Positions 39,900-63,732 of a stretch of DNA of 64,000 nucleotides are shown in pieces. A program made the position numbers and the translations under genes. How positions within the stretch are numbered: the first letter of the stretch is position 1; each line of letters begins with the position of its first letter. The DNA is from an uncultured bacterium (GTDB taxonomy: Bacteria > Desulfobacterota_D > UBA1144 > Nemesobacterales > UBA2774): NCBI GenBank assembly GCA_963825135.1, contig CAWGRW010000009.1, positions 2,272,001 through 2,336,000 on the forward strand, given 5' to 3'. The notes below the pieces were generated by a model, which did no database searches, had not been told where the DNA came from, and worked only from the letters and a program-made list of their open reading frames with translations.

Positions 39900-40095
39900 G
39901 ATACAATATTATAGTCCATTCCGGGCAGGAAATGCTTTCTCGCCCGAGGGATCGGTCCTCCATTATGATAAATCCGTTCTTAAATGCTGAATAGTGAATA
40001 TCCCGATTGTGTTTATCTATCGATTACTGACCGGGTGTGTATGTACACCACATGAGATATTGCCATATCTACCCGGAAAATAAAGGGCCGCGAGG

Positions 40096-41619: not shown

Positions 41620-41693
41620 TAGTGAACATCAATTATAAATGGTTTTATTTCTCTTTCAATCTGCGGGAAGCTCACGATAAATCAAATCATCAA

Positions 41694-43193: not shown

Positions 43194-43263
43194 ATACCAA
43201 CGGCCTGATGCTTTCGTTCAATATCAGTCAGGCATGAATGGAAATGTGCTTATAAACACGCCG

Positions 43264-44448: not shown

Positions 44449-44474
44449 CGTTAAAAAATCCGTTGGACTCCAAT

Positions 44475-45455: not shown

Positions 45456-45498
45456 AGCGGCACTATCTCGTAAAGCATTTTTGAGTGGGTGTGTCGAA

Positions 45499-46557
45499 TT
45501 ATCCGGGGCATTTAGCTTTCTCCTCTCCTAAAAATACCACTGCGCCTGTCCGTGCTGACTCTTCGGCTGCGGCCAAAACCTTGAGGCATTTGTAACCGTC
45601 GAGTAAATCAGGGCTCGCTTCACTTGCCCCTTTTATCGCCGAAAGGAAACGGACGATCGCGAGTTCAAACGACGGTTCTTTACCGGGGAAGAGTATCCGG
45701 TCTTTTAAATTTTGGGAGTTAAGAAGCGAACCAATATCGCTCTTGATCTGCGATAATAGTCCCGGCCGCTGGGACTCCGAGATTACAACCCTGAGGCTGG
45801 AATTGAATCTGTCGGCCAAGAGCTTGCCCCGGGTGCCGTAAACCTCAATTTTATCCTCGTCTATCGATGTTATCGAGAAATAGGATTGAACATCGATGCC
45901 TCCCGATGTTTTAAACTCGCATATAGCGTTGTCACCTTCAGTATTATGAGAGCCGATCGTTGCGGAAACTTGGGTCATGTCCGTGTCCAGTGTATATCGT
46001 ATGAGGTCTACATGGTGAGAGCCGATGTCGAGCAGCGCTCCGCCCCCTGAGACCCTATGCTTTCTCCATTCCGGGAATTCCCTGCGCCAGTATGAGAAAA
46101 CTGTGCGAACGCACGTTATTTCCCCGATAGCGTCTGACTCGATATGTTTCTTAAGCGAGAGATAGACAGGATTGAAACGAAGATTGAATCCTGCCATGCC
46201 TACTAGATTGGCGCTCACCCATGCCTTCAATACCTTCTCGGCCTCGTATGTACTTATGGAGATCGGCTTTTCCAGATAAACATGCTTTCCCGATTCGAAT
46301 GCCGAAATTGCCGCTTCTGCGTGCATATCGTTCGGAAGGCAGATTATCACCGCATCGAGGTCCGGGTGACGCAGCAGGTCTTGATAGTCCGGGTAGAGCG
46401 CTGCGTGAGGCGCCGATCTTCCGGCTTGTTCCCTGTTCACTGTGTCTGATTCGGCAATCGCGGCAAGTCGCAGCCCCGGCAGCTTTTTAAGTATATTAAG
46501 GTATACCAGGCTCGCGATACGTCCACACCCGATGAGGCCGACTTTAATATCCCGCAT
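45499..46557 (-). CDS. Gfo/Idh/MocA family oxidoreductase
   Basis: GLIGCGRIA, HVYLEKP, GGALLDIGSH. Confidence 0.93.
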   Translation of the reverse strand: MRDIKVGLIGCGRIASLVYLNILKKLPGLRLAAIAESDTVNREQAGRSAPHAALYPDYQDLLRHPDLDAVIICLPNDMHAEAAISAFESGKHVYLEKPISISTYEAEKVLKAWVSANLVGMAGFNLRFNPVYLSLKKHIESDAIGEITCVRTVFSYWRREFPEWRKHRVSGGGALLDIGSHHVDLIRYTLDTDMTQVSATIGSHNTEGDNAICEFKTSGGIDVQSYFSITSIDEDKIEVYGTRGKLLADRFNSSLRVVISESQRPGLLSQIKSDIGSLLNSQNLKDRILFPGKEPSFELAIVRFLSAIKGASEASPDLLDGYKCLKVLAAAEESARTGAVVFLGEEKAKCPG

Positions 46558-46691
46558 TTTCTATTTCAGCTTTCCCGTCTAGTTGAAATTACGTCCGTTA
46601 TTCTCGCCGCAGCTCGATTTCATACTACCTTAGTCTGGGTTTATTGAACAGGCGGGCCGGGTTGTGACCGATATAAAATCGGGCGTCAAAA

Positions 46692-46738
46692 TGGAGCCGA
46701 CAAGAGGATTGAAATCTCCGACCTGCTCATTACGAGTG
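46692..46738 (-). repeat. Displaced 3' half of tRNA-Thr (distal att site of the island)
   Basis: TGGAGCCGAC (10 nt) and GACCTGCTCATTACGAGTG (19 nt) are identical to 61571-61617 with the same spacing. The T-arm differs. Confidence 0.9.
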
Positions 46739-46989
46739 GGAGCACGTTATTTTCCAGAGCATAAATTACCTAACGATTTCAGATCAACTGCCCTAAAATA
46801 TTGTAGAATGCCCAACGGTTACAAACGTGTCTTAAATGGTAGAATCACCTGAGTCATATGTATCACACCTGAATTATAAACTGAGTTTTACTGACTTTTC
46901 GTTTAATAACCAAGGCGATTTCATGTCCGTGGTTACGTATAAGGAGTGCGACGGAAACGTGTGCGTCAAGATCGACCGCGCTACGCGGC

Positions 46990-49266: not shown

Positions 49267-49426
49267 ACCCGTTGAGAGAAGAATTACCGGTGGTCCGGAT
49301 CTGTTACGCCGACCGGACTCGCCGGAATCCGCATGTTCTCCAATGGCACAGACTCAGCCTGTAGCGCTGCCTCAACCTGTCGTCGTTAGTGAATTTATGA
49401 CGTTCACTGACGGCATGTCTCGCGGG

Positions 49427-50200
49427 TCAATGGTGGGGTCCGTGATCGGAGCACTCATGACTTTGTTGCGGGAGCTCCGTGCACGTATATGGTATATCCG
49501 TCCCCGGCACGTATCCCGTCAGATCAGCCGTACACTGCTGTGCAAGGCAAACCTCTTTACCCTTTTTCGCGCAGCCGCCGCCGATTCGCCGCTGAATGTT
49601 AGCGCAGCATTCTCCCTCGGTCGAGAACCCGCCGGGGCATACGCAAATCTCCCCATTGAATTTTGTGGCCGAAAAGGTTGTTAATTGCGTATCCGGACTT
49701 ATATCGAGCTCGATTGATTTTTGACATAGGCCGTTCTTGTCGCACTTTTGGATATCGGCTGAACCGGTGAGAGGCGTATCCAGAATAAGCGGCTGTCCTT
49801 GGGGTTCCGGACAATCTCTCTTTTTCGGTCGGAAGTGATTAGTGGTTGTTAAGGAAGAAATTACCGGAGTTAGACCAAAGGCGATGCCCTCAATGCCGCA
49901 GTCGGGGTCTAACGTATTGGGGTCGCACAACCCGTCTCCTAAGTCTACTGTGCCGTAGACGGAACAAGTCACGACCGGGCAATTCAAACCCGGGACACAG
50001 TTTTTAATGTTGCCCAATCCGGCGACTTCAGCGTCACAAATCTCGCTTCCCGTCCTCCAGCATCCGCAGCATCTTGTCCCCCCGACGGTCGGACATCTGT
50101 ACGTATAACCCGCTTTACATGTCGCCGCGTCGGCTTCGGTCCCCAACGCCGAGACCACAATCATACCTAACAGGCAGATAAACGTTAATCTCTCAAACAT
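49427..50200 (-). CDS. Cys-rich secreted hypothetical protein
   Basis: RBS AAGGAGG before ATG 50200, signal peptide ending ADA, more than 20 Cys in the mature part. Confidence 0.75.
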   Translation of the reverse strand: MFERLTFICLLGMIVVSALGTEADAATCKAGYTYRCPTVGGTRCCGCWRTGSEICDAEVAGLGNIKNCVPGLNCPVVTCSVYGTVDLGDGLCDPNTLDPDCGIEGIAFGLTPVISSLTTTNHFRPKKRDCPEPQGQPLILDTPLTGSADIQKCDKNGLCQKSIELDISPDTQLTTFSATKFNGEICVCPGGFSTEGECCANIQRRIGGGCAKKGKEVCLAQQCTADLTGYVPGTDIPYTCTELPQQSHECSDHGPHH

Positions 50201-50302
50201 GATGAATACCTCCTTATTTAAGAATTTCTTTTGCGATTTCTCTTTCAACATCGTGGGGGTTTCTCATGAACAACACCCCCATTTTTCTCAGCGGTCTCCC
50301 GA

Positions 50303-53300
50303 TTACGGAAGCGCCAGTGTAACCCGGGCGTAGAACATCCTTCCCGGCTGAATGCGCGGATTGTCGACGTCCACCTCAAAATAATTGAACTTTTGGTCAA
50401 AGAGATTCGTTGCTCCTACGGTGATGAAACCGTACCGCTTCGGCAGACGGTAATAGATCGCTGCATCGACTATCCAGAAGTTATCTTCGCCGGACACAAA
50501 ACCGTCTCCGTCCGGCGACAGAAAATCCCCGTCCTGGTTGAGGTAAGTCACGGTGAAAGAAGAACCCAAGCCGGAAGGATGGAAGAAATTGACCCCCAGG
50601 GGGACACGATTCGTATTCAGCTCTTTTGGCTGGTCGGTCAAACCCTGAGTCTCAAATCGCTCGAATATATACTGCGCTCTGAGAGCAAACCACGGATGTG
50701 GAGCCCAGAAGAGGTAGGCAAGGCCCAGATACTCGTTTACGTCCTCGTTCCGGATCGGAGGATTTTCAGGATCGACTGTAAAATCCAAGAATGGAGTATT
50801 CAGATCCCTCTTGGAAAATTGTACCCCCCCGAAAAAGTCTTTTGGGAATTTCTGATCGATGGCCCCCCCAAATACCCAGGATTCCGTTCCGTTTACATCG
50901 TCGAAGAATTGGTTGAAACCGGCGACCTGCGTCGGCTCCAGGGTCTGGTCCGTAATCAACGTTCTCTTCAAAACCCTGAATACAGCGGCGCGTAATGTCG
51001 TAGCCTGAAATGGGTTCCAGGTAATACCGAATTTCGGGTTGAACTGGTTTTTATCCCCGACGTCGGGACTGTCGCCGCTCAAGAAGTCGGCGCTTGCCCC
51101 GAGAGTAAACGTCACATTCTCCAGGGGGTTGATGTAAGAGTATGCGTACACATTCAGGTGTTGGAGATCCGTACTCGTGGTGGACTGCGCAACGATGGGT
51201 CCGTCGGGAGGTGGAATATCAATCGTGATGGTAGTGTCGATCCTTCCGTTTATGTCGAAATATCCCGCGCCGGTAACAAGGTTTACGTATTGCGAGCGGT
51301 AAAGGTGCTGGGCCTCGGCGCTATAAGCGTCTTCCGGCCTTACTGCGTCAAAGGAGCCAAGCTTATCCGTTAAATTAAAATCTGCCTTCTGATATGTAAA
51401 GTTGGCTATCAGGACCGAATTCGGTGAAAATGCGTGCCGTCCCCCAATCCGGAAGTAGTTTCTCTCTTCCTTGTTTCTCAACCCGGGGAGGAAGTCATCG
51501 GGAAAGAATCTGAGTGCGAGGTCCCCCAGCTCTGTATTTCGATACCTGTACTCTGCTTGAATGCTTGTTTTGTAAGAGAGTTCCAGCTGGACATAAGCGG
51601 TTGCGATTTGATCGGTCTGGTCGTCGTTTGCTCTGAACCCGTCCGTGTCAAATCGAGAATAACCCGCGCTGAAGCTGGCCTTATTATATATGCCTGAGAC
51701 GATGCCTTCTCCGGCCCAAGTATCATTTTCACCGACAAGGCCGCTCGTGAGCAGCGTTACCTGGTTACGGTTAAACAGCGGGTTGAACTCATCGAATGAC
51801 GCAGCCCCCGGGCCTTCGGAGGAGATTAAGAAGAGATTGCTCTCTGCGAGCCGGGGCTGAATAGGGGTGATGTTGATCGGCTGAAGCAGTTGGGACTGTA
51901 GCAGCTCGCTGACCCTGGCTATCTCGTGACGGGGTAAAACGGCATATGAATCTGCCAGGAACCGGTGGGCGGAAAAGCTCGCAGGATCGATGTTAACCGA
52001 TTTCCATCCTTCCACGAGGGCAAGCTGCTGGAAGCTCAGATCGGAGTATATTCGGGCAAGGCCGGCACTTCGCGCGGCCAGGTCCGAATCGAGCAGCAGA
52101 CGCGACCTATAGACCGCCCTGTTGTCGTTTAATTCGATGGATTTTTGCAGGTTATGCAGGGCCTCGACCGGCCTGTTTGTAGTCTGTTTCGCTATCGCAT
52201 CGTAGAACCACGGTGTTGGGTCCAGGGGATCCAGTTTCTTGGCGGTTTCGTACTCACGCACGTCCAGCTTGGTGCGTTTTTCTTCAAAGTAGGTTTTACC
52301 AAGATAGCTTCTGACAAGGGAGTTGTTGGGGTCAAGGCTTGCGGCAATCTCGATTTCCCTGCCTCCGCCATGCAGATCGCCATCCCGTATCATTGCCAGA
52401 CCAAGACCCAGCCTCGGGAGATAATCAGCCTGATCGAGGGCAATCGCTTTTTCAAATGAGTCCTTTGCCTGTTTTGTATCGACCTGCGTCAGATAGGCAA
52501 AGCCTAAAACTGTTTGCGTTCTCGAGAGATTCGGCTCCAGGGCTACTGCCTTCTGTGCCGCTTTGAGTGCTTTATCCAGATCGCCGAATGACGACCAGAT
52601 CTCCGCCAGCCGTGCCCACGCCAGCGCGTTTTTAGGATCCAGTTGCACCGCTTTTTCGAGGCTTGCTCGAGCGCCTTTCAGGTCAAAACTTGCCTGCTGT
52701 GCATATGAAAGGGCTATCTCTGCCGTGGCGGAGTCGGGATTCGTCTCGACGGCCTTCTCCGCAACCTCAAGCGCTTTATCTTTCTCGTTCTGCACAATGT
52801 AGATAATTGCTTCAAGCGCTAAGGCGTCGCCATACGTCGGGTTCAGACTCAGGGCCCGCTTGATATCTGCACCCGCCTCATCAACCCGTCCTACGGCCAG
52901 AAGCAGTGAGGCTCGATAAGCAAAAAAGCGCGGGTCACGGATATCCTCGGGAACATTCTTAATGCTGTTGAAGGCTCCCTGAATATCCCCGCTTATGTAA
53001 AGCTCGATGGATTTACGGACCATTCCTTCCCAGTCCGCACCGGCATGAAATTCATCAGGGCGGAGATAAAGGACGGGCGGATAGTACAATGTCCATTGGA
53101 CGGCATCCCTCGGACGCGCCACGATACTTAGCACCGGCGCTTTCCCGGCCTCGGCAACGGCCGATTGGCCGCCGGTAAGAGTCAGGCTTCCTGCATCGTT
53201 AGAGGCCACAACCGTCCCTTCAAAAGTAGACAGTAGAGTCTTGTCTTCTTCAACGTTTACCAGAAATTCTGTTCCCCTGACACCGGCAGTGGTAAAGGGC

Positions 53301-53692
53301 GTATGCACCTCCAGGCTGCTGGGGCCGCTGCTGAAGAAATGTGCGGCTCCCTTGATCATGTCTACCACGCTGGTCCGTTCTTCCTTTACGCCTTCGAGGG
53401 TTATCGTAGTATTTTCATTAAGGCGGATTACGGATTTCTCAAGCAAGGTTACGTCGGCACGGCTTTTATCCTGCACCCGAATCTTATCTCCGGGGCAGTA
53501 TGTGTCATTCAATTTAACCGGCTGCCAATTCGTTTCACCCACCTTTTGCGCCTCTACGGTTCCTTGGACCGAGACCACTTTTGCAACCGACTTCTCACAC
53601 GTCTCTGCGAACGCGGCATGGGAGTATAGAAAAGCCGACAAGAAGCTTGCACCCATGATAAAGCGCAAATAATAGAGATGCCTTCTCTTCAT
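50303..53692 (-). CDS. FecR + TPR + outer-membrane beta-barrel protein (NsrA-like architecture)
   Basis: Signal peptide, FecR motif TPFTTAGVRGTEF, many TPRs, C-terminal amphipathic strands ending NLFD...PGRMFYARVTLALP. Confidence 0.88.
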   Translation of the reverse strand: MKRRHLYYLRFIMGASFLSAFLYSHAAFAETCEKSVAKVVSVQGTVEAQKVGETNWQPVKLNDTYCPGDKIRVQDKSRADVTLLEKSVIRLNENTTITLEGVKEERTSVVDMIKGAAHFFSSGPSSLEVHTPFTTAGVRGTEFLVNVEEDKTLLSTFEGTVVASNDAGSLTLTGGQSAVAEAGKAPVLSIVARPRDAVQWTLYYPPVLYLRPDEFHAGADWEGMVRKSIELYISGDIQGAFNSIKNVPEDIRDPRFFAYRASLLLAVGRVDEAGADIKRALSLNPTYGDALALEAIIYIVQNEKDKALEVAEKAVETNPDSATAEIALSYAQQASFDLKGARASLEKAVQLDPKNALAWARLAEIWSSFGDLDKALKAAQKAVALEPNLSRTQTVLGFAYLTQVDTKQAKDSFEKAIALDQADYLPRLGLGLAMIRDGDLHGGGREIEIAASLDPNNSLVRSYLGKTYFEEKRTKLDVREYETAKKLDPLDPTPWFYDAIAKQTTNRPVEALHNLQKSIELNDNRAVYRSRLLLDSDLAARSAGLARIYSDLSFQQLALVEGWKSVNIDPASFSAHRFLADSYAVLPRHEIARVSELLQSQLLQPINITPIQPRLAESNLFLISSEGPGAASFDEFNPLFNRNQVTLLTSGLVGENDTWAGEGIVSGIYNKASFSAGYSRFDTDGFRANDDQTDQIATAYVQLELSYKTSIQAEYRYRNTELGDLALRFFPDDFLPGLRNKEERNYFRIGGRHAFSPNSVLIANFTYQKADFNLTDKLGSFDAVRPEDAYSAEAQHLYRSQYVNLVTGAGYFDINGRIDTTITIDIPPPDGPIVAQSTTSTDLQHLNVYAYSYINPLENVTFTLGASADFLSGDSPDVGDKNQFNPKFGITWNPFQATTLRAAVFRVLKRTLITDQTLEPTQVAGFNQFFDDVNGTESWVFGGAIDQKFPKDFFGGVQFSKRDLNTPFLDFTVDPENPPIRNEDVNEYLGLAYLFWAPHPWFALRAQYIFERFETQGLTDQPKELNTNRVPLGVNFFHPSGLGSSFTVTYLNQDGDFLSPDGDGFVSGEDNFWIVDAAIYYRLPKRYGFITVGATNLFDQKFNYFEVDVDNPRIQPGRMFYARVTLALP

Positions 53693-53769: not shown

Positions 53770-55659
53770 TCACCATGAGAGCGTAGTGACTTCCCGCTCA
53801 ACTATCATAAGCATTCGGGAGAAATTGCGCAACAGATTTTGGAGAAGCGTCATCTTCACCGTGGGATTCGTTTCACCCAGCTCATCGAATGCAGTCGTAG
53901 AGAGTAGGTAGCACTCTACGTGTTTATCGGCACGGACGTCTGCTGACCGTACCGTGCGGTTCACTACCGCAATCTCACCGAATGCCATACCGGGAGAAAG
54001 GGTCGATAACCGTTTGATCTGACCGTTAGGCAGATCGACTATAACACTAACTTCACCGCTCATGAGCAAGTAAATTTCATCCGCCGGCTCTCCCTTTCGT
54101 ACTATGAGCTCTCCGGGGTCGTAACGTTTGCTCGTGAGCAAAGGTTCCAGGAACGCGACGGCTTCAGGCGCGAGCCCCCGGCAAAGGTCATGCTCGGCCA
54201 GTGTCACCGACTCAAGAGAGCTGTCCTCGGGTTGCTGACTGGCTATCAAACGGTTCTCGCACCACTCGATGGCAATATCCATATCAGGGAAAATGTGCAG
54301 CCAAGCCTCCTGCTGATCATCGGTGTTAAGCTGCTCTTCTAAAAATCTGACAAAATTCGGGTGCTTCTGTAAGTTCACCAATAAAAGGTGTTTTCCACAA
54401 CTCTCGAAAGTCTTAATTAGTTCGAGCAGGGTCTGCGCGGACGAATCCTCAATATGTGTTACTCGCTTGAAGTCGATAACAGCTATGTCTGTCGTATCGC
54501 TAACATCGACTATCCTGCGGACCGTCACTTCCACAGCGGAAAAAACAAGATCACCCTGTAACTCATATACTTTCGCCCGCATGCCCGATTTATCGAGAAT
54601 TTCCGCATCACGCTCACCACGTAGTCGCTTGGACCTGATCTTGGAGACATCGTACTGTGCCCGAATCGCAGCACGCGAGGAACGCGGAACGCGAAGGCAG
54701 TGCAGGTTAAAATCCTTCGAAAGGTTCTTGCAAACCTCAATCCCTCGGACGCTGTTCCCGCGTGCATCGAGAGGAGGCGAGAAAACGCCGATCCCGGCTT
54801 GCCCCGGCATAACCGCCATTATTCCTCCTGACACGCCGCTCTTTGCGGGTATGCCGATCCAGTACATCCACTCACCCGCGTAGTCATACATACCGCAAGT
54901 GGTCATGATGCTCATTATGTTCTCAACGAGTTCGTCGCGAATTGCGCGCTCCTTCGTAAGCGGGTTGATTCCGCCGTTCGCCAAAGAGGCCGCCATCAAG
55001 CTCAGGTCTCGACAATCAATGGAGATTGAGCACTGCCGAAAATAGAGATCGAGCGCTATATCAGGATCTTCGCTCAGTATGTTGAAGTTACGTAGCATAT
55101 GACCGATGGCACGGTTACGATGGCCTGTTTCTCTCTCGGACCTGTACACAGTGGCATCTATGGAAAGCTTGCGGCCGGCGTAGACGGAGAAAACTCCCAA
55201 GAGACGATCCAACTTGTCCTTGCCGGAATTTCCGGCCACTAGAGACGTTGTAGCGATAGCACCGGCGTTGATCATGGGGTTGAACGGACAGCCGGTTTCC
55301 GGCGCGAGGCTGATCGAGTTGAAGGCATCGCCGGTCGGCTCAACCCCAATCTTGTCGAGCACCGCCTCTATGCCTCGATCTTCAAGAGCAATGCCATACA
55401 CGAACGGCTTTGAAATCGACTGAATCGTGAAGGGCTGACGAGTATCGCCGGTTTCGTAGACCCGGCCGTCGGTGGTAGCGATGCTGATACCAAACCAGTT
55501 AGGGTCCGCCTTAGAAAGCTCCGGGATATAGGTAGCGATCTTTCCGTCTTGCAGCTTCGTGCATTTTGCGTGCAGGCGCTCTAGGTACGCCTGAATGGGA
55601 GATTTGACTTGATGGCTCTCTCCTGTGTTCCTGCTTTGCACCGCGCGTCCTAACAGCAT
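53770..55659 (-). CDS. glsA: Glutaminase A fused to STAS and cyclic-nucleotide-binding domains
   Basis: YIPELS, QSISKP, NPMINAGAI, PAKSGVSGG, GNSVRG; STAS IDFKRV; cNMP FGEIA..RSADV. Start chosen from the RBS and promoter. Confidence 0.93.
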   Translation of the reverse strand: MLLGRAVQSRNTGESHQVKSPIQAYLERLHAKCTKLQDGKIATYIPELSKADPNWFGISIATTDGRVYETGDTRQPFTIQSISKPFVYGIALEDRGIEAVLDKIGVEPTGDAFNSISLAPETGCPFNPMINAGAIATTSLVAGNSGKDKLDRLLGVFSVYAGRKLSIDATVYRSERETGHRNRAIGHMLRNFNILSEDPDIALDLYFRQCSISIDCRDLSLMAASLANGGINPLTKERAIRDELVENIMSIMTTCGMYDYAGEWMYWIGIPAKSGVSGGIMAVMPGQAGIGVFSPPLDARGNSVRGIEVCKNLSKDFNLHCLRVPRSSRAAIRAQYDVSKIRSKRLRGERDAEILDKSGMRAKVYELQGDLVFSAVEVTVRRIVDVSDTTDIAVIDFKRVTHIEDSSAQTLLELIKTFESCGKHLLLVNLQKHPNFVRFLEEQLNTDDQQEAWLHIFPDMDIAIEWCENRLIASQQPEDSSLESVTLAEHDLCRGLAPEAVAFLEPLLTSKRYDPGELIVRKGEPADEIYLLMSGEVSVIVDLPNGQIKRLSTLSPGMAFGEIAVVNRTVRSADVRADKHVECYLLSTTAFDELGETNPTVKMTLLQNLLRNFSRMLMIVEREVTTLSW

Positions 55660-55688
55660 ATATCCCCCTGTATTGGTACTCAACGGTG

Positions 55689-55703
55689 GCAATATGGATG
55701 CCA
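55689..55703 (-). promoter_or_regulatory. Putative sigma54 promoter of the glsA operon
   Basis: Minus strand TGGCATCCATATTGC (GG-N10-GC), about 30 nt upstream of ATG 55659. Confidence 0.7.
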
Positions 55704-55875
55704 GTGGAAAGAATTCGTAATCTACCATTATAAGGAGGGACGAGTAATATAAAGAAATTGCGCGTAAGGTCTGCTAAGAACGAATAAATATTTAACAGAT
55801 GAGATGGCAGGAAAATAATCCTATCAGTTATGTATCTGATCATTTGTGCTTAGGTTAAATTACTCTGTGCGAAAA

Positions 55876-55915: not shown

Positions 55916-56268
55916 ATCGAATTGCTATGATTTAGAAATTCTCTAAATCTAGAATACGTAATATTTAATCATTTAGTGGGATTCCGGAGTATGTGGGTGA
56001 TATATATTTGGATAGGGTAGGGGGTAATATGAAGCATGCGTAGAAATTCATGAAGGTAATATCCTGACTGTTAAGCGGAATCAAAGGCTGATAACAAAGC
56101 GTGTATCAGAGAGACAAGAGCCCTTGATTTCGAACACTACTCATATATGATAACACCGGTCCTGGTGGAGAGAAAGGTATCGAGGCGAACGGAATCTCGG
56201 ATGGAGCGAAGTATTAGCTTCAATGGCCATGAACTATATTTAGTTCATAACCCATTACAGTGTGTAAG

Positions 56269-57018
56269 ATGAAACTGCATATATTAGGCTCTGGAACTTG
56301 CGTTCCCAATATTAGAAGAGGATCGTCAGGCTACGCGCTTGAGCTTTCCGAATCGACAATTTTACTTGACTGCGGTAGCGGTACTACATGGAAATTAGGT
56401 ATGGTCGGCGTTGATTATCTTACAGTGGACCATATCTTTATAACCCACTTTCATCCCGATCATACTGCAGATTTAATCCCGTTCTTATTTGCAACAAAAT
56501 ATCCTCACCCCACTAAAAACCGGGAAAAACCCCTTGTTATATGGGGCCCAAAAGGTTTTACAGAGTTCTACTCATCTTTAAAGTTAGCCTTCCACGATTG
56601 GATTGCTCCGGATAACTTGACTATCAAAGAAATAACTGAGGAACCGTTGAGGCTGGACGATTTTGTTTTGGTCGCCCGAAATACATTTCATACGGAAAAC
56701 AGCGTTGCCTACAGGATAGAATCTGGCGGAAAATCAATAGTATACTCCGGGGACACGGGATACACCGATTCATTGATTGAGCTTGCAACAGGTGTGGATT
56801 TGTTAATCGTCGAATGCTCATTTCCCGATGAACTTAAATTTTACGCCCATCTTACCCCAAGCGAAGTCGGAATGATTGCAAGTGCGTCAAAGGCTAAAAA
56901 AATTATTCTGACACACCTTTATACTGATTGTGATGAGATAGACATTATCGGGCAAGTTAGAGAGTATGTAGACGTGGATGTAATTCTCGCCGAGGATTTG
57001 ATGGAAATCGATATATAA
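56269..57018 (+). CDS. MBL-fold metallo-hydrolase (RNase Z/phosphodiesterase-like)
   Basis: LGSG, LLDCGSG, THFHPDH, YSGDT, LTH motifs. Confidence 0.9.
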   Translation: MKLHILGSGTCVPNIRRGSSGYALELSESTILLDCGSGTTWKLGMVGVDYLTVDHIFITHFHPDHTADLIPFLFATKYPHPTKNREKPLVIWGPKGFTEFYSSLKLAFHDWIAPDNLTIKEITEEPLRLDDFVLVARNTFHTENSVAYRIESGGKSIVYSGDTGYTDSLIELATGVDLLIVECSFPDELKFYAHLTPSEVGMIASASKAKKIILTHLYTDCDEIDIIGQVREYVDVDVILAEDLMEIDI

Positions 57019-57336: not shown

Positions 57337-57594
57337 TCAGAGCATCATGCTCAACTTAAGCTCACGTACAGGAGGCAGCCAAATCACGTCACAGTACAAC
57401 AATTTCCCTTTGTTGTCATAATGGCAATCTAGGCAAAGCCTTCCGTCATCACTGCATTTCATTTCTTGCGGAATTATAACCTGACCATCCGTACGGTCGA
57501 CCTTGCCCGTCTGAAGCAAGTAGCGCTCACCCATCTTGTCGAGCGAGAATTCTGCGGTAAATCCTGGAATAGCCATTTTATACAATTCGCTCAC
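57337..57594 (-). CDS. Precursor-like small peptide 3 (PGFTAE leader, 4-Cys core)
   Basis: MAIPGFTAEFSL..Y...VIIPQ then EMKC..C..C..C. SD AAAGGAGG. Start may be GTG 57594, TTG 57585 or ATG 57576. Confidence 0.75.
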   Translation of the reverse strand: MSELYKMAIPGFTAEFSLDKMGERYLLQTGKVDRTDGQVIIPQEMKCSDDGRLCLDCHYDNKGKLLYCDVIWLPPVRELKLSMML

Positions 57595-57720
57595 CTCCTT
57601 TCGGATTCTTGCACATACCTAAAATTTTCACACACCTCACGGTGCATATTTGCAGCACATCCCGGTTTCCCCCCTGTTCATCGCATCTCAGGCGGGGCTT
57701 GAGTGAAAGAACGGTTCTTC

Positions 57721-58017
57721 TCACCAAGGCCAAATGCATCGCGTGCATGGTGTTTCGCAGCAATCCCAGTGACAAATGGGGTTACATCTCATGTGATATT
57801 CGCAATTGCAACACCAGCTGTCCCAGCAGCCCCAAGCGTTTAAGCCGCCTACCCCTCCTAACCCCCCCAAGCCGCCACCAACCCGTATTTGTGAAATGAC
57901 TCTTTGCTCTCCGCTACTACAACCTTGAGTCGCTACAGACTGGTAGCGCCTGCTCGTCTTGTAGAGTGAAGTATCTGCGGTAAATCCCGGAATAGTCATT
58001 TTATACAATTCGCTCAC
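57721..58017 (-). CDS. Precursor-like small peptide 2 (PGFTAD leader, Gly linker, 10-Cys/6-Trp core)
   Basis: MTIPGFTADTSL...RVISQ IRVGGG...NAWGCWDSWCCNC...PCTRCIWPW. Confidence 0.82.
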   Translation of the reverse strand: MSELYKMTIPGFTADTSLYKTSRRYQSVATQGCSSGEQRVISQIRVGGGLGGLGGVGGLNAWGCWDSWCCNCEYHMRCNPICHWDCCETPCTRCIWPW

Positions 58018-58143
58018 CTCCTTTCGGATTCTTGCACATACCTAAAATTTTCACACACCACACGGTGCATATTTGCAGCACATCCCGTTTTCCCCACCGT
58101 TCATCGCATCTTAGGCGGGGCTTGAGTGAAAGAACGGTTCCTC

Positions 58144-58443
58144 TCACCAAGGCCAAATGCACCGCGTGCATGGTTCGCACACCTGCTGCTGACACTCGCA
58201 TACATAACGGCCGTCTCCGGTAGGCCAGCAGGGGCCCCAAGCAACACATCTGCAGCATTCAGACTCCCAGCAGCCCCAAGCGTTTAAGCCGCCTGCCCCT
58301 CCTACCCCCCCCAAACCGCCACCAACCCGTATTTGTGAAATAACTCTTTGCTCTCCGCTACTACGACCTTGAGTCGCTACAGACCGGTAGCGCCTGCTCG
58401 TCTCGTGGAGTGAAGTATCTGCGGTAAATCCTGGAATAGTCAT
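58144..58443 (-). CDS. Precursor-like small peptide 1 (PGFTAD leader, Gly linker, 10-Cys/6-Trp core)
   Basis: SD GGAGGT 7 nt before ATG; paralog of 57721-58017. Confidence 0.85.
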   Translation of the reverse strand: MTIPGFTADTSLHETSRRYRSVATQGRSSGEQRVISQIRVGGGLGGVGGAGGLNAWGCWESECCRCVAWGPCWPTGDGRYVCECQQQVCEPCTRCIWPW

Positions 58444-58476
58444 TTCATTTACCTCCCTATAGAGTGATTTTCGATC

Positions 58477-59412
58477 TTATCGGTCATAGTACGGTGATAA
58501 CTTGCTGACCAGGAATGGAAATTCCTCGGTCACATCCACGCGAATAAAGAACTTTTCGGTGACATCGGTATTGCGGTTCGTGAAAGAGAATATTACCTCA
58601 ACGATTTTGCGCGTGCTGCTGAGAGGCGAAGGACGCACCTCAACCGCTGTCAAAGATTGGTTTTGAGCGAAGGCTTCTGCCGCCCTGGCGTAGATTCCAC
58701 TGCATCGCACCGCTGAATAGTTTAGGGCGCGATGTTCATCTGTCGCTCCCCCATTATCAGCCATCTGCATTATCCTCAGGAACAGTTCCTCTGCAGCGGG
58801 TGTGAAATCTTTTGTGGCAATTTCCTTTGGTTTTGGAATAGACTTTATCAAAGAGTCGATGTCGAATGAATACATCTGGTCGAACACTACAATGGGAACC
58901 ATAAGCCCATTGCACATCTCAGGCGGGGCAATTGGTCCCCTTAAGCCAATCACCACATCAATATCTGTGAGACGCGAAGAGTGTAGGGAGTCCACCAGCT
59001 GATCATAGCTCGTTTGGTCGCGAGGAAGTAGTACGTAGGTTTCCAAACCCTCAATGGTAAACACCCAACATAACTGCCGCACAAGGTAGCGGTTCTTTGG
59101 CTCAGACAGAATCTTGTGAAGGGCCTGCCGGTCTGTGAGCCCGGCTGTATCTCCTCGTCCGGTGGCTTGGGCAAATTCCTTTTCCACCGACAGCCGTGGA
59201 CAAACCGCGTTGACTCTGCCAAGTGCATATATGTAGGAAGGGGGCGTAGAAGCAGTTCCGTCTCCACAAGTGGGGCAGCTTCCCTGGTCGGTCTGCGGAG
59301 AGATAGTCGTTTTTGCATGACCATTGCCAGGAGATTTAGAAATTGCCAATGTGTCCTTCATATTTACAGCTTGGTCTCCCAACTGTTCTTTCACTTCATC
59401 ATTCTGTTCCAT
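58477..59412 (-). CDS. Stand-alone PatA/PatG C-terminal DUF domain protein
   Basis: YIYALGRV, LCWVFTIEG, CNGLMVPIV, GATDEHRALNY and DVTEEFPFLVSKLSPYYDR match cyanobactin protease C-termini. RBS GAGGAG before ATG 59412. Confidence 0.88.
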   Translation of the reverse strand: MEQNDEVKEQLGDQAVNMKDTLAISKSPGNGHAKTTISPQTDQGSCPTCGDGTASTPPSYIYALGRVNAVCPRLSVEKEFAQATGRGDTAGLTDRQALHKILSEPKNRYLVRQLCWVFTIEGLETYVLLPRDQTSYDQLVDSLHSSRLTDIDVVIGLRGPIAPPEMCNGLMVPIVVFDQMYSFDIDSLIKSIPKPKEIATKDFTPAAEELFLRIMQMADNGGATDEHRALNYSAVRCSGIYARAAEAFAQNQSLTAVEVRPSPLSSTRKIVEVIFSFTNRNTDVTEKFFIRVDVTEEFPFLVSKLSPYYDR

Positions 59413-59494
59413 AATATTTCTCCTCTTTTTGAGATATATTTGAAAGACTCTGTGTATCCATTTACTCGGGGCACATCGCAATTCCTCTCTACAT

Positions 59495-59686
59495 TTAACG
59501 CCGCCCGGAGAGAACTATCCATCGGTTCAGCGCCGCGGCACGACGTTCGCAGCTGCCGCATTGCCTGATTCCGACCGCGGTTGTTGCTCGCTTGATCACG
59601 TCCCCAAGCCCGATGTCCTCATCGGCGGTGAATCCCGGAAGTCGCACTCTGTAAGGCCGGCCTTTCCTTGTCTCATCTTTTTTCAT
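59495..59686 (-). CDS. Small CxxC protein with LPGFTAD motif
   Basis: RVRLPGFTADEDIGLGDVIKRAT..GI..CGSCERRAAALN. Overlaps the protease stop; RBS AGGAG. Confidence 0.8.
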   Translation of the reverse strand: MKKDETRKGRPYRVRLPGFTADEDIGLGDVIKRATTAVGIRQCGSCERRAAALNRWIVLSGRR

Positions 59687-60641
59687 GTTGCTTTCTCCTA
59701 AAGTTGACCTTCATGACCTGATATGCTCTCTCAACATCCAATAAAGGCGGGACAACCGTAGCCCGCCGCCGGGCGTGTGCTTGTGCTGCCGCTAGTTTCA
59801 CTTGAGCTGAGGTTGCGGAGGGAAATTCGGACCATAGAAGTGCGATTGCACCTGTTACAAATGGCGCTGCAGCGCTCGTCCCTCCGAATGTGTGTGATTT
59901 GCCATTAGTTCCCAAACTTGTAATGTTGTCACCAGGGGCGCTTAGACCTCTCCTGCCTATCGAGCTTCCGAGATTCGAATAGATAAGCGGTCTTCCTTGA
60001 TTGTCACATGCAATAACAGGAATTACCCAGGGATGGCGCGTGATAGCGGAGCTTCCGATTGTTCCTTGATTTCCCGCAGCCGCAACAATAATAGTTCCGC
60101 GCATTGCGGCATAATCTAGAGATTCTTCTAATTTGCGCTCACCCTTAGACGAAGGTTGTGCAAGGGCAGCACTCAGGTTGATCACGTTTGCGCCTGCATC
60201 AACTGTCTCGATAATCGCCTCTGCTAGTTCATCTGGAGTCGCACTTGGCATTTGTCCGTTCTCAGACGGCTCTGCGAAGATCGGACGTACCAGCAGGGTG
60301 CAATCGGGACATATTGATGGGGCTTTGGAACCTCGCTCTCCGCACAATATACCTGCTACAAATGTTCCGTGCATACAGGCAGTGCTGCTCGCAAGTGCGC
60401 ACGCACATGAAAGTTTCCCCGGGATCTCACGAATATTCTCATTGGAGAGGTTGGGGTGGTTCAAAAAGACTGGTCCGTCTATTAGACCAATCATAATCTC
60501 AGGCTTACCTCTGCTGAGTTTCATAAGCCCAATGAGATTTAGTAAATCCAGGGGGCTTATTGAGTTTGAACTATTAGGCGATTGTTCTGAGGTACTTCGA
60601 GTAGTCTGATCCTCAGTAAACCCGCATTCGAGTACAATCAT
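59673..60641 (-). CDS. Stand-alone PatA/PatG-like subtilisin (S8) protease
   Basis: Triad IDGPV (Asp), HGTFVAG (His), GTSAAAP (Ser), oxyanion AAAGN. No signal peptide. Confidence 0.93.
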   Translation of the reverse strand: MIVLECGFTEDQTTRSTSEQSPNSSNSISPLDLLNLIGLMKLSRGKPEIMIGLIDGPVFLNHPNLSNENIREIPGKLSCACALASSTACMHGTFVAGILCGERGSKAPSICPDCTLLVRPIFAEPSENGQMPSATPDELAEAIIETVDAGANVINLSAALAQPSSKGERKLEESLDYAAMRGTIIVAAAGNQGTIGSSAITRHPWVIPVIACDNQGRPLIYSNLGSSIGRRGLSAPGDNITSLGTNGKSHTFGGTSAAAPFVTGAIALLWSEFPSATSAQVKLAAAQAHARRRATVVPPLLDVERAYQVMKVNFRRKQHEKR

Positions 60642-60739
60642 ATTCCCATCACCCTAAAAAAGTCAGAGTAAAAGGGAAATCACTTATATGCTAGATTGCA
60701 ACTTAGACACACAGGAAGGTGTAAAATTTTTTGAGATCT

Positions 60740-60826
60740 AACTATTGCAATCCAGCCGCCTTAAACATCAAGTTCTTAGGCCTGTGACTTTGCGTCCCAC
60801 TCTTTCGAATGGTTTGCCCTTTTAGT
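60740..60826 (-). ncRNA. c-di-GMP-I (GEMM-I) riboswitch
   Basis: Minus strand AGGGCAAACCATTCGAAAGAGTGGGACGCAAAGTCACAGGCCTAAG...AAGGCGGCTGGATTGC: GAAA tetraloop, GACGCAAA junction, receptor stem. Confidence 0.92.
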
Positions 60827-60834
60827 CTAGAGTG

Positions 60835-60864
60835 AGACTAACACAAAGATGTCAATAATGTCAA
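60835..60864 (-). promoter_or_regulatory. Putative sigma70 promoter for the riboswitch-protease operon
   Basis: Minus strand TTGACA-18nt-TAGTCT with an extended TG, and an AT-rich UP region. Confidence 0.5.
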
Positions 60865-61570: not shown

Positions 61571-61645
61571 TGGAGCCGACGCCCAGACTTGAACTGGGGA
61601 CCTGCTCATTACGAGTGAGCTGCTCTACCACTGAGCTACGTCGGC
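61571..61645 (-). tRNA. tRNA-Thr(CGT)
   Basis: GCCGACGTAGCTCAGTGGTAGAGCAGCTCACTCGTAATGAGCAGGTCCCCAGTTCAAGTCTGGGCGTCGGCTCCA. Confidence 0.97.
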
Positions 61646-61876: not shown

Positions 61877-62779
61877 CTATTTGTCTCTTCGTTTAAAACT
61901 CAAGGTATTGCTGATACCTCCCAAGACCCAGCAGGAAAATCCAACGGCAAGAAGACCTAGAAGAGCTATGGCTTTCCACCATGAGTACCCTCCGCCGCGA
62001 GCGGTCCTGCGGAATACTTGAAACCTTTCCCAATTGGTTAGTGGTCTGGCATTTACTACCCGTCCGTATTCACGGCTGCTCCTCCCATAAATGAATATTT
62101 TTCGGAAAAATTTATCCGGACTATCGATTTCCATATGACGAACCCGAATATCGGGCGAATAACGAATGATATCACACGAATATCTGTCCACGCATCCGCG
62201 AATGAAGATAACGTCCGACCCCCTGGCTCTTTCGAGGAACGGTCCCATATCATCGAACAGCATCTTTCGGACTGCCATATTTCTCGTATATCCATAGTAT
62301 AATTCCTTGATCCCGCTCGTGAATACGTAGTTGTTTTTTTCATTCTCATAGTCCTCCAGCATCGAGAGCATGAACGATTCCCTGGCGGCTTGATATTTCC
62401 CAATGACGATGCCCGCATCGGAATTGGCCATCGCCGATTCAATCTCATTCAACCAGTCGCCGGACGGGACGCAATCCGAATCCGTAAAGGCGATTATCTC
62501 GCCGTTCGCCGATTGAAGTCCCCTGTTGCGTGCTGAATACGATCCCCGTTTTCTTTCGGAGATTAATTTAATTTGAGGATGCCGCCTTATAATGTCTGCC
62601 GAAGAATCCATCGAACCGTTGTTGATGAATATGATCTCATAGCGTTCTTCCGGATAATTCTGGTTTCGCAGACCTTCGACGCATTGTCCGATGTATCGCT
62701 CCGAATTATAAAATGGCACTATCACGGAAATACGTATCATATCATTGTCATCCGGGTTTCCGGGTATGAACATGGGCAA
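61877..62779 (-). CDS. Glycosyltransferase family 2
   Basis: ISVIVPFYN, INNGS, GSYSARN, FTDSDC. Start may be 62740. Confidence 0.92.
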   Translation of the reverse strand: MPMFIPGNPDDNDMIRISVIVPFYNSERYIGQCVEGLRNQNYPEERYEIIFINNGSMDSSADIIRRHPQIKLISERKRGSYSARNRGLQSANGEIIAFTDSDCVPSGDWLNEIESAMANSDAGIVIGKYQAARESFMLSMLEDYENEKNNYVFTSGIKELYYGYTRNMAVRKMLFDDMGPFLERARGSDVIFIRGCVDRYSCDIIRYSPDIRVRHMEIDSPDKFFRKIFIYGRSSREYGRVVNARPLTNWERFQVFRRTARGGGYSWWKAIALLGLLAVGFSCWVLGGISNTLSFKRRDK

Positions 62780-62811
62780 GGCTGCGGCTAATCACGCCGC
62801 GGCTCCATCGA

Positions 62812-63732
62812 TCAGGGCAGCACCTTGCGCAGTTTGGCGATTCTGACGCTCAGGCGTCCCGACGTGAAACAAACCACGCCGGCAAGGACCAATGCAATTA
62901 GATATATAGAGTCAACAACACTATACCCATGTTTCTTAATAGTCGAGTGGATTATCTCATATCGCTCGGAAAAAGTCATTTGCCTGTGAGTCTCCTTCCT
63001 TATATCGTAATTCTGTTCGAGGCTCTTTCCATATATGAACCTCTTACCAAGGTAATCCCGCAATTTTGTGATTTCCAGATGTCTTATAGAGGCGTCTGGC
63101 ACGTAGCGTATGATTTCAGACGTATATTCCTCGATCGCGCGGTTCACAAAAATGCTGTCCGCTCCCCTCATAACCTCTAAAAACGGTCCGCACCGGTCAA
63201 ATACATCCCTTTTGACAGCCATGTTATTTGTGTATCCGTAATAGAGTCCCTTCGATTTTCCCGAAAACGTGTATAAAGCTCTTTCGGACTCATAAGCTTC
63301 GAGCATCAAAAGGCCTCGCGATTCAGTGGTATACTGGCGTCCCCCCTGTATAATGCCCACCCCGGGCGAGCGCAGGGCCTCCGAAATCCTATTCAGCCAC
63401 TCCGGGTCTGGTATGCAATCCGAATCCGTGAACACGATAGTGCCGCCCCTGGATTCGGCGACTCCGAAGTTACGCGCAGCGTATGAACCCTGCTTTGATT
63501 CCGATAGTAGTCGTATTTGGGGATAATTCTTTACAATTTCTGCCGAATTATCCGTTGAGTTGTTATCAACCATTATCATTTCGCGGCGCGAAGTCGGGAA
63601 AGACTGTGAAAGGAGGGCCGTTATACACTGTTCGATACTCTTTTCGGCGTTGTGAAAAGGAACAACCACAGAAATGTCTACAATATTTTGTTGAGGGCTG
63701 GTAGATTTTGGCTGATAAGTAACGTTGCTCAA
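62812..63732 (-). CDS. Glycosyltransferase family 2, paralog of its neighbour
   Basis: ISVVVPFHN, VDNNS, GSYAARN, FTDSDC, shared LYYGYT.NMAV. Confidence 0.92.
   Translation of the reverse strand: MSNVTYQPKSTSPQQNIVDISVVVPFHNAEKSIEQCITALLSQSFPTSRREMIMVDNNSTDNSAEIVKNYPQIRLLSESKQGSYAARNFGVAESRGGTIVFTDSDCIPDPEWLNRISEALRSPGVGIIQGGRQYTTESRGLLMLEAYESERALYTFSGKSKGLYYGYTNNMAVKRDVFDRCGPFLEVMRGADSIFVNRAIEEYTSEIIRYVPDASIRHLEITKLRDYLGKRFIYGKSLEQNYDIRKETHRQMTFSERYEIIHSTIKKHGYSVVDSIYLIALVLAGVVCFTSGRLSVRIAKLRKVLP

Follow-up and report, generated by a model that had tools for sequence, protein, structure and literature searches.

Operon with an S8 protease, a PatG-type protein and tagged peptides

Contig CAWGRW010000009.1 of an uncultured Desulfobacterota_D bacterium (lineage UBA2774, assembly GCA_963825135.1) carries a candidate peptide-processing operon within the stretch of 64,000 nucleotides analysed here (positions 2,272,001 to 2,336,000 of the forward strand), which we call the window and whose coordinates are used below. 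One tightly packed gene string on the (-) strand, 57337-60828, consists of a cyclic di-GMP (c-di-GMP) riboswitch, a subtilisin-like (S8) protease, a 63-aa protein, a protein related to the unknown-function domain (DUF) of the cyanobactin enzyme PatG, and three small open reading frames (ORFs), and all of these parts were found where the original prediction had placed them. The three small ORFs open with M-x-I-PGFTA(D/E)-x-SL, hereafter the tag, and have Cys-rich tails. The c-di-GMP-I aptamer (60743-60828 (-), Rfam RF01051) is followed by a predicted expression platform, which reaches from the aptamer to the S8 start codon (60642-60742 (-)), and by the gene of a PatA-type S8 protease of 322 aa (59673-60641 (-), PF00082). 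The end of this gene is overlapped by the ORF of the conserved 63-aa protein (59495-59686 (-)), which carries a tag-like RLPGFTADE motif and a CxxC pair, CGSC. A stand-alone PatG-type DUF protein with the Pfam domains PatG_D and PatG_C comes next (58477-59412 (-), 311 aa from the ATG at 59412). Peptide 1 (58144-58443 (-), 99 aa) has the tag MTIPGFTADTSL, a junction VISQ, a core with 10 Cys and the end IWPW; peptide 2 (57721-57999 (-), 92 aa from its ATG) has the same tag MTIPGFTADTSL, 10 Cys and the same IWPW end; and peptide 3 (57337-57576 (-), 79 aa from its ATG) has the tag MAIPGFTAEFSL, a junction VIIPQ and a 4-Cys core of another family. Peptides 2 and 3 are each preceded by a copy of a repeated spacer (copy 1, 58000-58143 (-); copy 2, 57577-57720 (-)) belonging to the direct repeat D1, which carries the Shine-Dalgarno region.

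The likely starts of the DUF protein, peptide 2 and peptide 3 are the ATGs at 59412, 57999 and 57576, which are preceded by Shine-Dalgarno sequences, rather than the upstream GTG/TTG codons of the longest ORFs that had been assumed at first. It had also been stated that the peptides end in IWPW with no follower; this holds for peptides 1 and 2, and no AYD follower was found, but peptide 3 ends in KLSMML. A six-frame scan of the 3.13-Mb genome for PGF[TS]A[DE] returned only the three peptide ORFs and the 63-aa protein. None of the six operon proteins has a hydrophobic stretch fit for a signal or membrane segment by hydropathy, and a promoter and terminator scan of the locus stayed at chance level. 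Because the same gene order and the same tag recur in the related loci described below, the operon with its tag is, on this comparison, more than a chance arrangement.

The S8 protease matched PF00082 with an E-value of 2e-25 (90 bits against a cut-off of 21.8) and keeps the subtilase order of residues, with D55 in IDGPV, H91 in HGTF, the oxyanion N191 in GNQG and S256 in GTSAA. Its maximum 19-residue hydropathy is 1.38, so that no membrane or signal segment is predicted; the intact triad (D55/H91/S256) and the lack of a signal peptide had both been claimed, and both claims stand. Since its homologs begin directly at the mature domain (M-PLDLVKL...IGLIDGPV), the enzyme would also lack a prodomain. 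The nearest structures are the N-terminal cyanobactin proteases PagA/PatA (4h6w, 4h6v and 3zxx; E 1e-33 to 5e-31, residues 34-272), the PatG macrocyclase aligns to residues 91-271 only (1e-11), and the match to TIGR03895 is partial, at 110 bits below the 421-bit cut-off. By homology, the protease is thus a cytoplasmic, PatA-like enzyme. We also considered a tag on the protease itself and rejected it: the CGFTED of the window protein is not conserved, and 71 homologs begin near M-PLDLVKL.

The DUF protein matched PatG_D (1e-28, 100.4 bits, cut-off 27) and PatG_C (2.5e-33, 115 bits, cut-off 25.9), so that the profile searches proposed as a check (Peptidase_S8, PatG_D and PatG_C) all gave matches above cut-off. 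Among solved structures, the sequence found the PatG DUF only (4uvq, 1.7e-4). An AlphaFold2 (AF2) model built with 61 homologs has a mean predicted local distance difference test score (pLDDT) of 81.4, with about the first 55 residues disordered, and it superimposes on 4uvq with a Foldseek E-value of 4.6e-15 (template modelling scores 0.65/0.75) and a VIA-align Z of 22.5 (root-mean-square deviation 2.9 Å over 244 residues, 20% identity). Beyond 4uvq, the model found only OB-like matches of its N-terminal half, at Z 6-7.5, which is within the stated background of the tool. The structure report (PMC4259220) describes the PatG DUF as a novel fold and leaves its function open. The window protein is 53-79% identical to 60 aligned homologs from many phyla, with 35 invariant columns, which is striking for a group of such taxonomic breadth. 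Its disordered N-terminal tail holds TISPQ followed by CPTC (59250-59300 (-)) and reads TISPQTDQGSCPTCG; the motif [IVL]xPQ-x(0-12)-Cx(1-2)C was found in 40 of 64 anchorable homologs, and some Cys pair in 57 of the 64. Self-cleavage or tethering involving the S8 protease may take place at this tail.

Distribution and conserved anatomy of related loci

A scan with the DUF protein, in which each species was represented by one genome, gave 272 candidate stretches, 189 of them with DUF relatives, and 80 loci were kept; locus counts out of 81 refer to these 80 plus the window. The carriers include many Acidobacteriota, cyanobacteria, Brocadia, Nitrosospira, Nitrotoga, Planctomycetota, Alpha- and Deltaproteobacteria, and among Actinomycetota Streptomyces calvus and Amycolatopsis taiwanensis, and two of the carrier metagenome-assembled genomes (MAGs) are labelled archaeal (Methanoperedens and Nitrososphaerales). 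Nitrosospira multiformis, S. calvus, A. taiwanensis and Pseudanabaena are carriers that can be cultivated. A profile-free search of 1.84 billion cluster representatives (50% identity clusters) with the DUF protein gave 1588 matches at E<=1e-3 and 374 at E<=1e-30, and the best 150 matches are mostly about 290-330 aa long, that is, stand-alone proteins. The separation of the S8 and DUF domains had been noted as a difference from cyanobactin pathways. Judged by these lengths, the stand-alone DUF is the dominant form of its subfamily, and the split is the norm and not a novelty; fused S8-DUF proteins at 45-64% identity coexist with it.

A full-length S8 gene lies directly upstream of the DUF gene in 71/81 loci, most of the others showing S8 fragments or contig ends. 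When the ORFs of the 81 loci were clustered all against all, only two protein families proved widespread: the DUF was present in 81 loci and the S8 group in 78. Another large cluster represents antisense shadow ORFs, and no other neighbour family occurs in more than 11 loci. The Pfam names of 146 larger neighbours are heterogeneous, and a good number of these genes are of mobile-element or conflict type, with transposases, a resolvase, TIR and caspase domains, Ser/Thr kinases, phospholipase D (PLD) and Fic domains, and additional S8/kumamolisin proteases. Among these 146 neighbours, no transporter family and no family that modifies peptides of the ribosomally synthesized, post-translationally modified kind (RiPPs) recurs, MacB/FtsX-type permease domains being present in two loci only, and no LanB/LanC or LanM enzyme was found. 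Within its genus, the DUF was found only in the genome studied here and in none of the nine others. The search of 24 further members of the family returned no copy, and in the order one genome gave a strong match, at 79% identity. This patchy distribution is as expected for horizontal transfer, and the operon was probably acquired in that way.

The 63-aa protein, which reads RVRLPGFTADEDIGLGD, includes the RLPGFTADE copy of the tag motif, and a small protein of this kind lies between S8 and DUF in 67/81 loci. Its consensus is HRVRLPGFxxDEEIGLGDVIKRATYAxGIKPCGGCExRAAALNRWMxFSR, with P17, F19, G26, G28, C43, C46 and R49 invariant; it thus mimics the tag, but acidic residues replace the A-S of the substrates. 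The AF2 model (pLDDT 79.6) predicts a strand-helix-helix-strand arrangement with the CxxC opening helix 2. No Pfam, NCBIfam or PADLOC family was found for it: the Pfam/NCBIfam matches to Gly_rich_SFCGS and EF_0830 are far below their cut-offs, the match to the PHROG family of unknown function phrog_32048 is weak (8.6e-6), and in fold comparisons a wide VIA-align search gave a best Z of 2.3 and the ESM Atlas unnamed clusters only. The original prediction had recorded merely a CxxC protein here and had missed this conserved third component that mimics the tag.

Given that the closest relatives of both large proteins are cyanobactin enzymes, the set of S8, small protein, DUF and tagged ORFs, which we refer to as the kit, could be regarded as a cyanobactin pathway, degenerate or incomplete, whose products are N-to-C macrocycles, but we give this reading almost no credence. 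The likeness is clear: the S8 protease is nearest to PatA/PagA (E 1e-33), its partner has the fold of the PatG DUF (Z 22.5), both proteins are cytoplasmic in the two systems, hypervariable cores are set between conserved flanks, and residues 8-11 of the tag, A-E-A-S, resemble the PatA site, though far from the core. However, the kit has no heterocyclase, macrocyclase, oxidase or prenyltransferase. A search of the 94%-complete genome for YcaO (PF02624) gave no match, although it detected the family in 5 of 14 control genomes, and among the 57 window ORFs there was no YcaO, lanthipeptide enzyme (LanB/LanC-type), oxidase, prenyltransferase or exporter (NCBIfam, E<=1e-10). The S8 is single, with the PatG macrocyclase matching residues 91-271 only (1e-11), and no second, macrocyclase-type S8 was found in the operon or the other 57 window ORFs. 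Furthermore, in the kit the tag lies at the extreme N-terminus and no AYD(G)-type C-terminal follower is present, the cores are long (20-60 or more residues) with many Cys in even numbers, a conserved 63-aa protein is added, and the DUF, usually encoded by a gene of its own, shares only about 20% identity with the PatG DUF, while conservation inside its subfamily is far higher. The kit also spreads far outside cyanobacteria, and the same picture is seen across the 80 related loci. Cyanobactin clusters are not known to have an exporter either, so its lack is no distinction. The kit is, on these comparisons, related to cyanobactin pathways and not a member of them, in agreement with what had been proposed at first.

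The class I lanthipeptide proteases NisP and ElxP are alike in that an S8 enzyme removes a leader at a short motif. In contrast to them, the kit protease is closer to PatA than to subtilisins, LanB/LanC is lacking in the window, and the leader box of the kit is N-terminal.

The tag, the junction and the cargo

Tagged ORFs were picked from the loci by a regular expression, with the tag <=8 residues from the start codon. This gave 178 complete tagged ORFs in 74/81 loci, 1-7 per locus with a median of 2, located downstream of the DUF gene; tagged small ORFs, for which a neighbourhood analysis of split S8+DUF genes had been suggested, thus occur at most such loci. One or two entries are probably chance, for instance, in L074, a membrane-like ORF of 228 aa that lies on the opposite strand. 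The consensus is M-x-x-PGFTAEASLY-x5-Y, followed by a short variable linker before the junction. Among the 178 ORFs, the residues of the tag are P in 178, G in 175, F in 172, T in 107 (N in 23, S in 21), A in 178 and E in 154 (D in 24), followed by A in 92, S in 138, L in 120 and Y in 87, with Tyr at +15 in 132; since the regular expression fixed P and A and restricted G, F and D/E, only S, L and Y(+15) are independent observations. No Pfam or NCBIfam model matched any tagged ORF tested. In the acidobacterial locus L052, two larger ORFs downstream of the DUF gene (6646-7242 and 7921-8574 (+)) match the plant Stig1 Cys-rich family (E 2e-10 and 3e-9), the second of which carries the tag; these matches are probably a resemblance in Cys pattern.

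A strict PQ junction was found in 79/178 ORFs, 24-42 residues after the tag Pro, and a looser [PA][QASM] junction in 145/178, with the first Cys mostly 1-10 residues later. According to PMC10885120, the cytoplasmic S8 leader protease ElxP recognises (D/E-5)(L/V-4)xx(Q-1) and PatA cuts after G(L/V)E(A/P)S. The [VI][VLI]PQ junction of the kit matches the ElxP motif: within the 79 PQ ORFs, P4 is V/I/L in 73 and P3 is V/L/I in 55, the Gln at P1 being fixed beforehand by searching for PQ. We favour a predicted S8 cut after the junction Gln over one at the A-E-A-S of the tag, because the junction is placed exactly where conservation stops and the cysteines begin, because its Gln is invariant in the family of the window peptides, and because it is copied in the disordered tail of the DUF.

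Cysteines account for 0.3% of leader residues and 12.2% of core residues, and their number downstream of the tag is even in 168 of the 178 ORFs (binomial 2e-38; related sequences are not independent, so this value overstates the case, but the cores form as many as 116 families with 91 singletons). Two Cys occur in 12 ORFs, four in 42, six in 46, eight in 29 and ten in 13, the series continuing up to 44. Even numbers at every size are what complete intramolecular pairing predicts, and the products would therefore be fully disulfide-bonded; disulfide-rich products are likely on this pattern. It had been proposed that the operon makes linear disulfide-rich or metal-binding or structural peptides, and the disulfide-rich part of this proposal fits the counts, whereas the metal-binding and structural part finds no support in them. 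That the products are intracellular metal-binding, redox or structural peptides seems very doubtful to us. The Cys share of the cores and the CxxC pairs in the small protein and the DUF tail would suit such a role, as would the Zn site in the PatG DUF crystal (PMC4259220), but according to the same paper the Zn ligands are not conserved even among cyanobactin homologs. The Cys counts show no preference for multiples of four, and as six is the commonest number (46/178), next to four, two and ten, three disulfides fit better than Zn(Cys)4. The cores are hypervariable (116 families), whereas metal sites are usually conserved, and the tagged Fic enzymes described below do not fit.

The cores appear to be replaced as cassettes. 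Peptides 1 and 2 match at the nucleotide level in nearly every column of the tag, the linker, the last ~30 nt of coding sequence and the ~130-nt downstream spacer, while about 90 columns of the central core cannot be aligned and differ in length; the spacer falls within the 232-nt direct repeat D1 at 91% and the tag region within a 184-nt repeat at 95%. These two peptides are, by this alignment, a recent duplication in which the core alone was replaced or diverged far faster. Copy 1 of the repeated spacer has no significant RNA structure (z -1.16). The IWPW family is small, with seven homologs of peptide 1 among 5.8 billion proteins, in which P4, A8, S11, L12, Y19, the junction Q37 and three Cys are invariant, and its core family also occurs directly after the DUF gene in the Brocadia locus L013. 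Peptide 3 forms the first row of the leader alignment. Another core family, GAYWRCRANGGGDLICRFFGGLPPFTIGGLL, is shared across a Flavobacteriaceae MAG, Pyrinomonadaceae, Brocadia, a Leptolyngbyales MAG and Nitrotoga. Prochlorosins and conopeptide-like families likewise combine one conserved leader with many unrelated tandem cores and cassette-like replacement, but their processing proteins differ, and the diversity of the kit lies in disulfide frameworks and not in thioether rings.

The tag is not confined to small peptides. In L017, from a Candidatus Cybelea MAG, the small protein and the DUF are present, and the DUF gene is followed by a Cys-rich ORF with the variant tag LPQWTAELSLY and then by a 221-aa Fic protein that starts MSLPGFTANACLYRTTNQYR (6001-6666 (+), Fic match 2.6e-20); no S8 gene lies in the 4.5 kb upstream. 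Among the best 120 matches of a search with this Fic protein, 12 fit the strict tag expression, and 17 of the top 19 are tagged by eye. This recurrent subfamily of small, tagged Fic proteins (P0231-P0249) has 172-205 aa and begins MSLPGFTA(N/D)ACLYRTTNQYR. All seven tagged members checked keep HPFxDGNGRxxR and lack the (S/T)xxxE(G/N) motif, whereas four of four untagged close relatives (about 70% identical) have SNAIEG within the N-terminal ~100 residues that the tag replaces. This motif belongs to the inhibitory helix of Fic enzymes, and its loss gives a constitutively active, toxic enzyme. In L009, from a Nitrososphaerales archaeon MAG, a 530-aa Cys-rich ORF with the tag MTLPGFNAQIAIY follows the DUF gene (5627-7219 (+)); no S8 gene was found in the 4.5 kb upstream, and the 530-aa protein has no Pfam family. 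The description of a RiPP-like system stood as far as an uncharacterised peptide processing is concerned, but was too narrow, as Fic enzymes and proteins as long as 530 aa also begin with the tag. The tagged ORFs divide clearly into leader and core, and no modifying enzyme is conserved among the 80 loci.

The DUF in turn is found with several enzymes. In most of 81 longer DUF relatives, an S8 domain is joined to the DUF in a protein of about 600 aa that has 45-64% identity with the window DUF, and other N-terminal partners of a C-terminal DUF are Gamma_PGA_hydro, Fic, glycosyltransferase (GT1/GT4) and DUF676/alpha-beta hydrolase domains. From these fusions, the DUF is predicted to be a constant module that partners changing enzymes. 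Since Fic domains occur both fused to the DUF and headed by the tag, the tag and the DUF may be expected to meet (a Rosetta-stone argument), which suggests that the DUF binds the tag.

We lean slightly towards the interpretation that the kit is a self-contained module which processes tagged proteins by means of a DUF adaptor and an S8 protease acting at the junction. The substrate would be a pro-protein with an N-terminal tag, a linker ending at [VI][VLI]-P-Q, and a hypervariable Cys-rich cargo. The stand-alone PatG-type DUF would bind the tag and present the substrate, and the PatA-like cytoplasmic S8 would cut after the junction Gln, whereupon the released peptides would pair all their cysteines (ten Cys in peptides 1 and 2, four in peptide 3). 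The 63-aa protein, with its non-cleavable-looking LPGFxxDEE and CxxC, and the DUF tail, with IxPQ and a Cys pair, might act as pseudo-substrates or tethers; that they hold or regulate the S8-DUF complex is speculation. The products would most likely be antagonistic or signalling peptides.

Several observations weigh against this interpretation. A-E-A-S, the best-conserved stretch of the tag, is similar to G(L/V)E(A/P)S of PatA substrates, so the S8 protease might cut there, removing about 11 residues, or at both sites, and fewer than half of the tagged ORFs (79/178) have the strict PQ junction. The small protein is missing in 14/81 loci, among them those of cyanobacteria, in which S8 and DUF are directly adjacent. 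An S8 gene was not seen in the available upstream DNA of L009, L017 and L030, although the DUF is present; proteolysis by this S8 would therefore not be obligatory for the role of the DUF. Disulfide-rich products imply an oxidising compartment, while no signal peptide or conserved exporter was found. Finally, binding of linear PatE by the PatG DUF was not detected by nuclear magnetic resonance, according to PMC4259220; PatE lacks the PGFTAE tag.

The S8-less loci and the tagged Fic enzymes also bear on two other readings. In the first, the tag and the DUF would be a general, portable tag/adaptor pair across bacteria and archaea that recruits cargo to the enzymes linked to the DUF (S8, another peptidase, Fic, glycosyltransferase or esterase), a generalisation that we put forward tentatively, as possible rather than probable. 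In the second, PGFTAE would mainly be a delivery or loading signal for polymorphic toxins (Cys-rich peptides, larger Cys-rich proteins and de-inhibited Fic enzymes), with the DUF and the small protein as adaptor or chaperone, a release route that is unlinked or unknown, and the S8 as an optional accessory that removes the tag. Polymorphic toxin systems combine a constant N-terminal trafficking module with a variable C-terminal cargo, and the kit is alike in that its cargo includes Fic enzymes without the inhibitory motif (the catalytic motif kept and the inhibitory one lost in 7/7 tagged, SNAIEG kept in 4/4 untagged). A cargo of about 20 to >500 residues, the 116 core families from 178 ORFs (91 singletons) in arrays, few of them common to several phyla, the occurrence of DUF loci without S8, and the frequent TIR, caspase, Ser/Thr kinase, PLD, transposase and resolvase neighbours would also agree with trafficking. 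We nevertheless consider it unlikely: no known secretion apparatus is linked to the kit or conserved nearby, no immunity gene is evident, and a protease present in 71/81 loci is hardly optional. Moreover, the occurrence of the kit in diderms, actinomycetes, cyanobacteria and archaea argues against a single envelope-spanning apparatus, and its cargo is mostly tiny Cys-rich peptides accompanied by a dedicated protease and DUF, which sets it apart from polymorphic toxins.

Riboswitch control, genomic setting and significance

The aptamer at the head of the operon, about 100 nt upstream of the S8 ATG, matched RF01051 with 77.6 bits (gathering threshold 35) over its full length, model positions 1-87. 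By this match the c-di-GMP-I riboswitch is genuine, and ligand binding and switching are predicted for it. For the 206-nt leader the folding energy is -62.7 kcal/mol, far better than that of shuffled sequences (z -4.12); in the predicted fold, a hairpin covers the Shine-Dalgarno region of the S8 leader, and a competing 13-bp alternative helix takes the 3' strand of the second helix of the aptamer. With the aptamer enforced, the energy is -49.9 kcal/mol, a cost of about 13 kcal/mol, and the competing helix is lost while the Shine-Dalgarno hairpin is kept. Constrained folding of the leader did not tell ON from OFF, as this hairpin persisted.

In all, ten c-di-GMP-I riboswitches were found in the genome, scoring 58-78 bits (contig C9, loci L085-L094). 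The ORFs 3' of the other nine are assorted, several having N-terminal hydrophobic segments, and one ORF downstream of these riboswitches looks PilM-like by eye and one PilZ-like. A scan of 47 of the 81 related loci (L001-L080 and L082) with Rfam found a riboswitch 5' of S8 in two, the Brocadia loci L013 and L014, both of the c-di-GMP-I-GGC type at 65.2 bits each. The riboswitch as a general feature of the kit was therefore rejected. Since it is present in the window and, among the 47 loci scanned, only in the two of Brocadia, c-di-GMP control is, on this distribution, a lineage-specific addition made at least twice. In the organism studied here the peptides would be made when c-di-GMP changes, because the riboswitch is placed before the horizontally acquired operon. 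L014 has a second c-di-GMP-I-GGC copy (9347-9468 (+), 62.4 bits) ~2.4 kb downstream of the DUF gene, which precedes a 438-aa ORF with an N-terminal hydrophobic segment, unrelated to the kit. The other RNA elements observed are Acido-Lenti-1 small RNA matches (41-43 bits) a few kb from the kit in the acidobacterial loci L024, L038 and L041, and a group II intron in L008 (3803-4023), about 700 nt upstream of the S8 gene.

Directly upstream of the promoter region of the operon lies a tRNA-Thr(CGT) gene (61571-61645 (-)). Near it, between 60981 and 61645, a 37-aa fragment weakly matched a transposase helix-turn-helix domain (HTH_Tnp_1, E 0.004), and short ORFs without a Pfam match presumably derive from the C-terminus of a tyrosine integrase, judged by eye. 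The G+C content is 0.40 on both flanks of the operon against about 0.50. A repeat search found no direct repeats marking island ends. The tRNA-Thr gene, the transposase- and integrase-like fragments and the low-G+C flanks suggest a small genomic island. Exopolysaccharide (EPS)-type genes lie on both sides of the operon (39018-53692 and 61877-63732 (-)) and encode GT2 and GT4 glycosyltransferases, a 1129-aa PrsT-like tetratricopeptide repeat protein and an inositol-dehydrogenase-like oxidoreductase, and it looks as if the island had been inserted into an EPS region. These neighbours fit a biofilm-phase programme, as context only. Closer to the operon, a 652-aa glutaminase (53770-55728 (-)) matches the NCBIfam glutaminase model over residues 42-456 and has a long C-terminal extension, in which part of the acetyltransferase Pat model gives a weak match to residues 518-629; judged by eye, the extension resembles a STAS and a cyclic-nucleotide-binding domain. 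A metallo-beta-lactamase (MBL)-fold hydrolase (56260-57018 (+)), convergent to the operon end, weakly matches the anti-Pycsar Apyc1 family, its 23 bits falling short of the cut-off of 50.

A mobile setting and cytoplasmic components would also suit an intracellular conflict system of the abortive-infection type, in which the tag keeps pro-toxins inert and, on a signal, the S8 protease frees peptides or Fic enzymes that kill or arrest the producer; proteases likewise activate bacterial gasdermins. All components are cytoplasmic with no exporter found, the distribution is sporadic and horizontal, the operon adjoins the tRNA-Thr gene and a weak transposase-like fragment, TIR, caspase and GT4-conflict neighbours occur in some loci, and the protease could be kept inactive by the pseudo-substrate features seen in the small protein and in the DUF tail. 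We regard this explanation as quite improbable, however. PADLOC 2.0 matched the S8 only, with generic subtilase and IetS models, and neither the DUF, the small protein nor the peptides; PHROGs assigned the S8 to a generic protease family, gave the small protein a weak match of unknown function, and matched neither the DUF nor the peptides. Besides, the even Cys counts point to oxidised, extracytoplasmic products, the extreme cargo diversity per locus is unusual for defence effectors, and c-di-GMP control fits lifestyle regulation better than infection sensing.

We found no description of such a system in the literature searched, subscription-only papers and supplements being outside its scope, which agrees with the original view that it is uncharacterised; it seems to be a widespread, portable kit not described before. 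If the tag and the DUF are the general tag/adaptor pair put forward above, the kit would represent a new class of microbial peptides, very large, rich in disulfides and matured by a protease, in which the 63-aa tag mimic and the junction-like DUF tail provide pseudo-substrate control, and the cyanobactin DUF would be a substrate-recruiting domain. Since the structure of the PatA/PatG DUF was solved in 2014 (PMC4259220), its function has stayed open; here the DUF is separate, extremely conserved and has a candidate ligand, the 10-residue tag, so that the question becomes directly testable. If the tag/adaptor pair is general, tagged cargo would range from tiny peptides rich in disulfides to Cys-rich proteins of 500 aa and to Fic toxins freed from inhibition. 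The tagged Fic enzymes without an inhibitory motif suggest a link to microbial conflict. The c-di-GMP riboswitch would offer a handle for inducing the operon, and hints that the products belong to a sessile or biofilm programme. The system is large, with hundreds of unrelated disulfide frameworks predicted, and would amount to a naturally occurring collection of cysteine-dense peptides, drawn from lineages of soil and freshwater, from anammox bacteria and from archaea.

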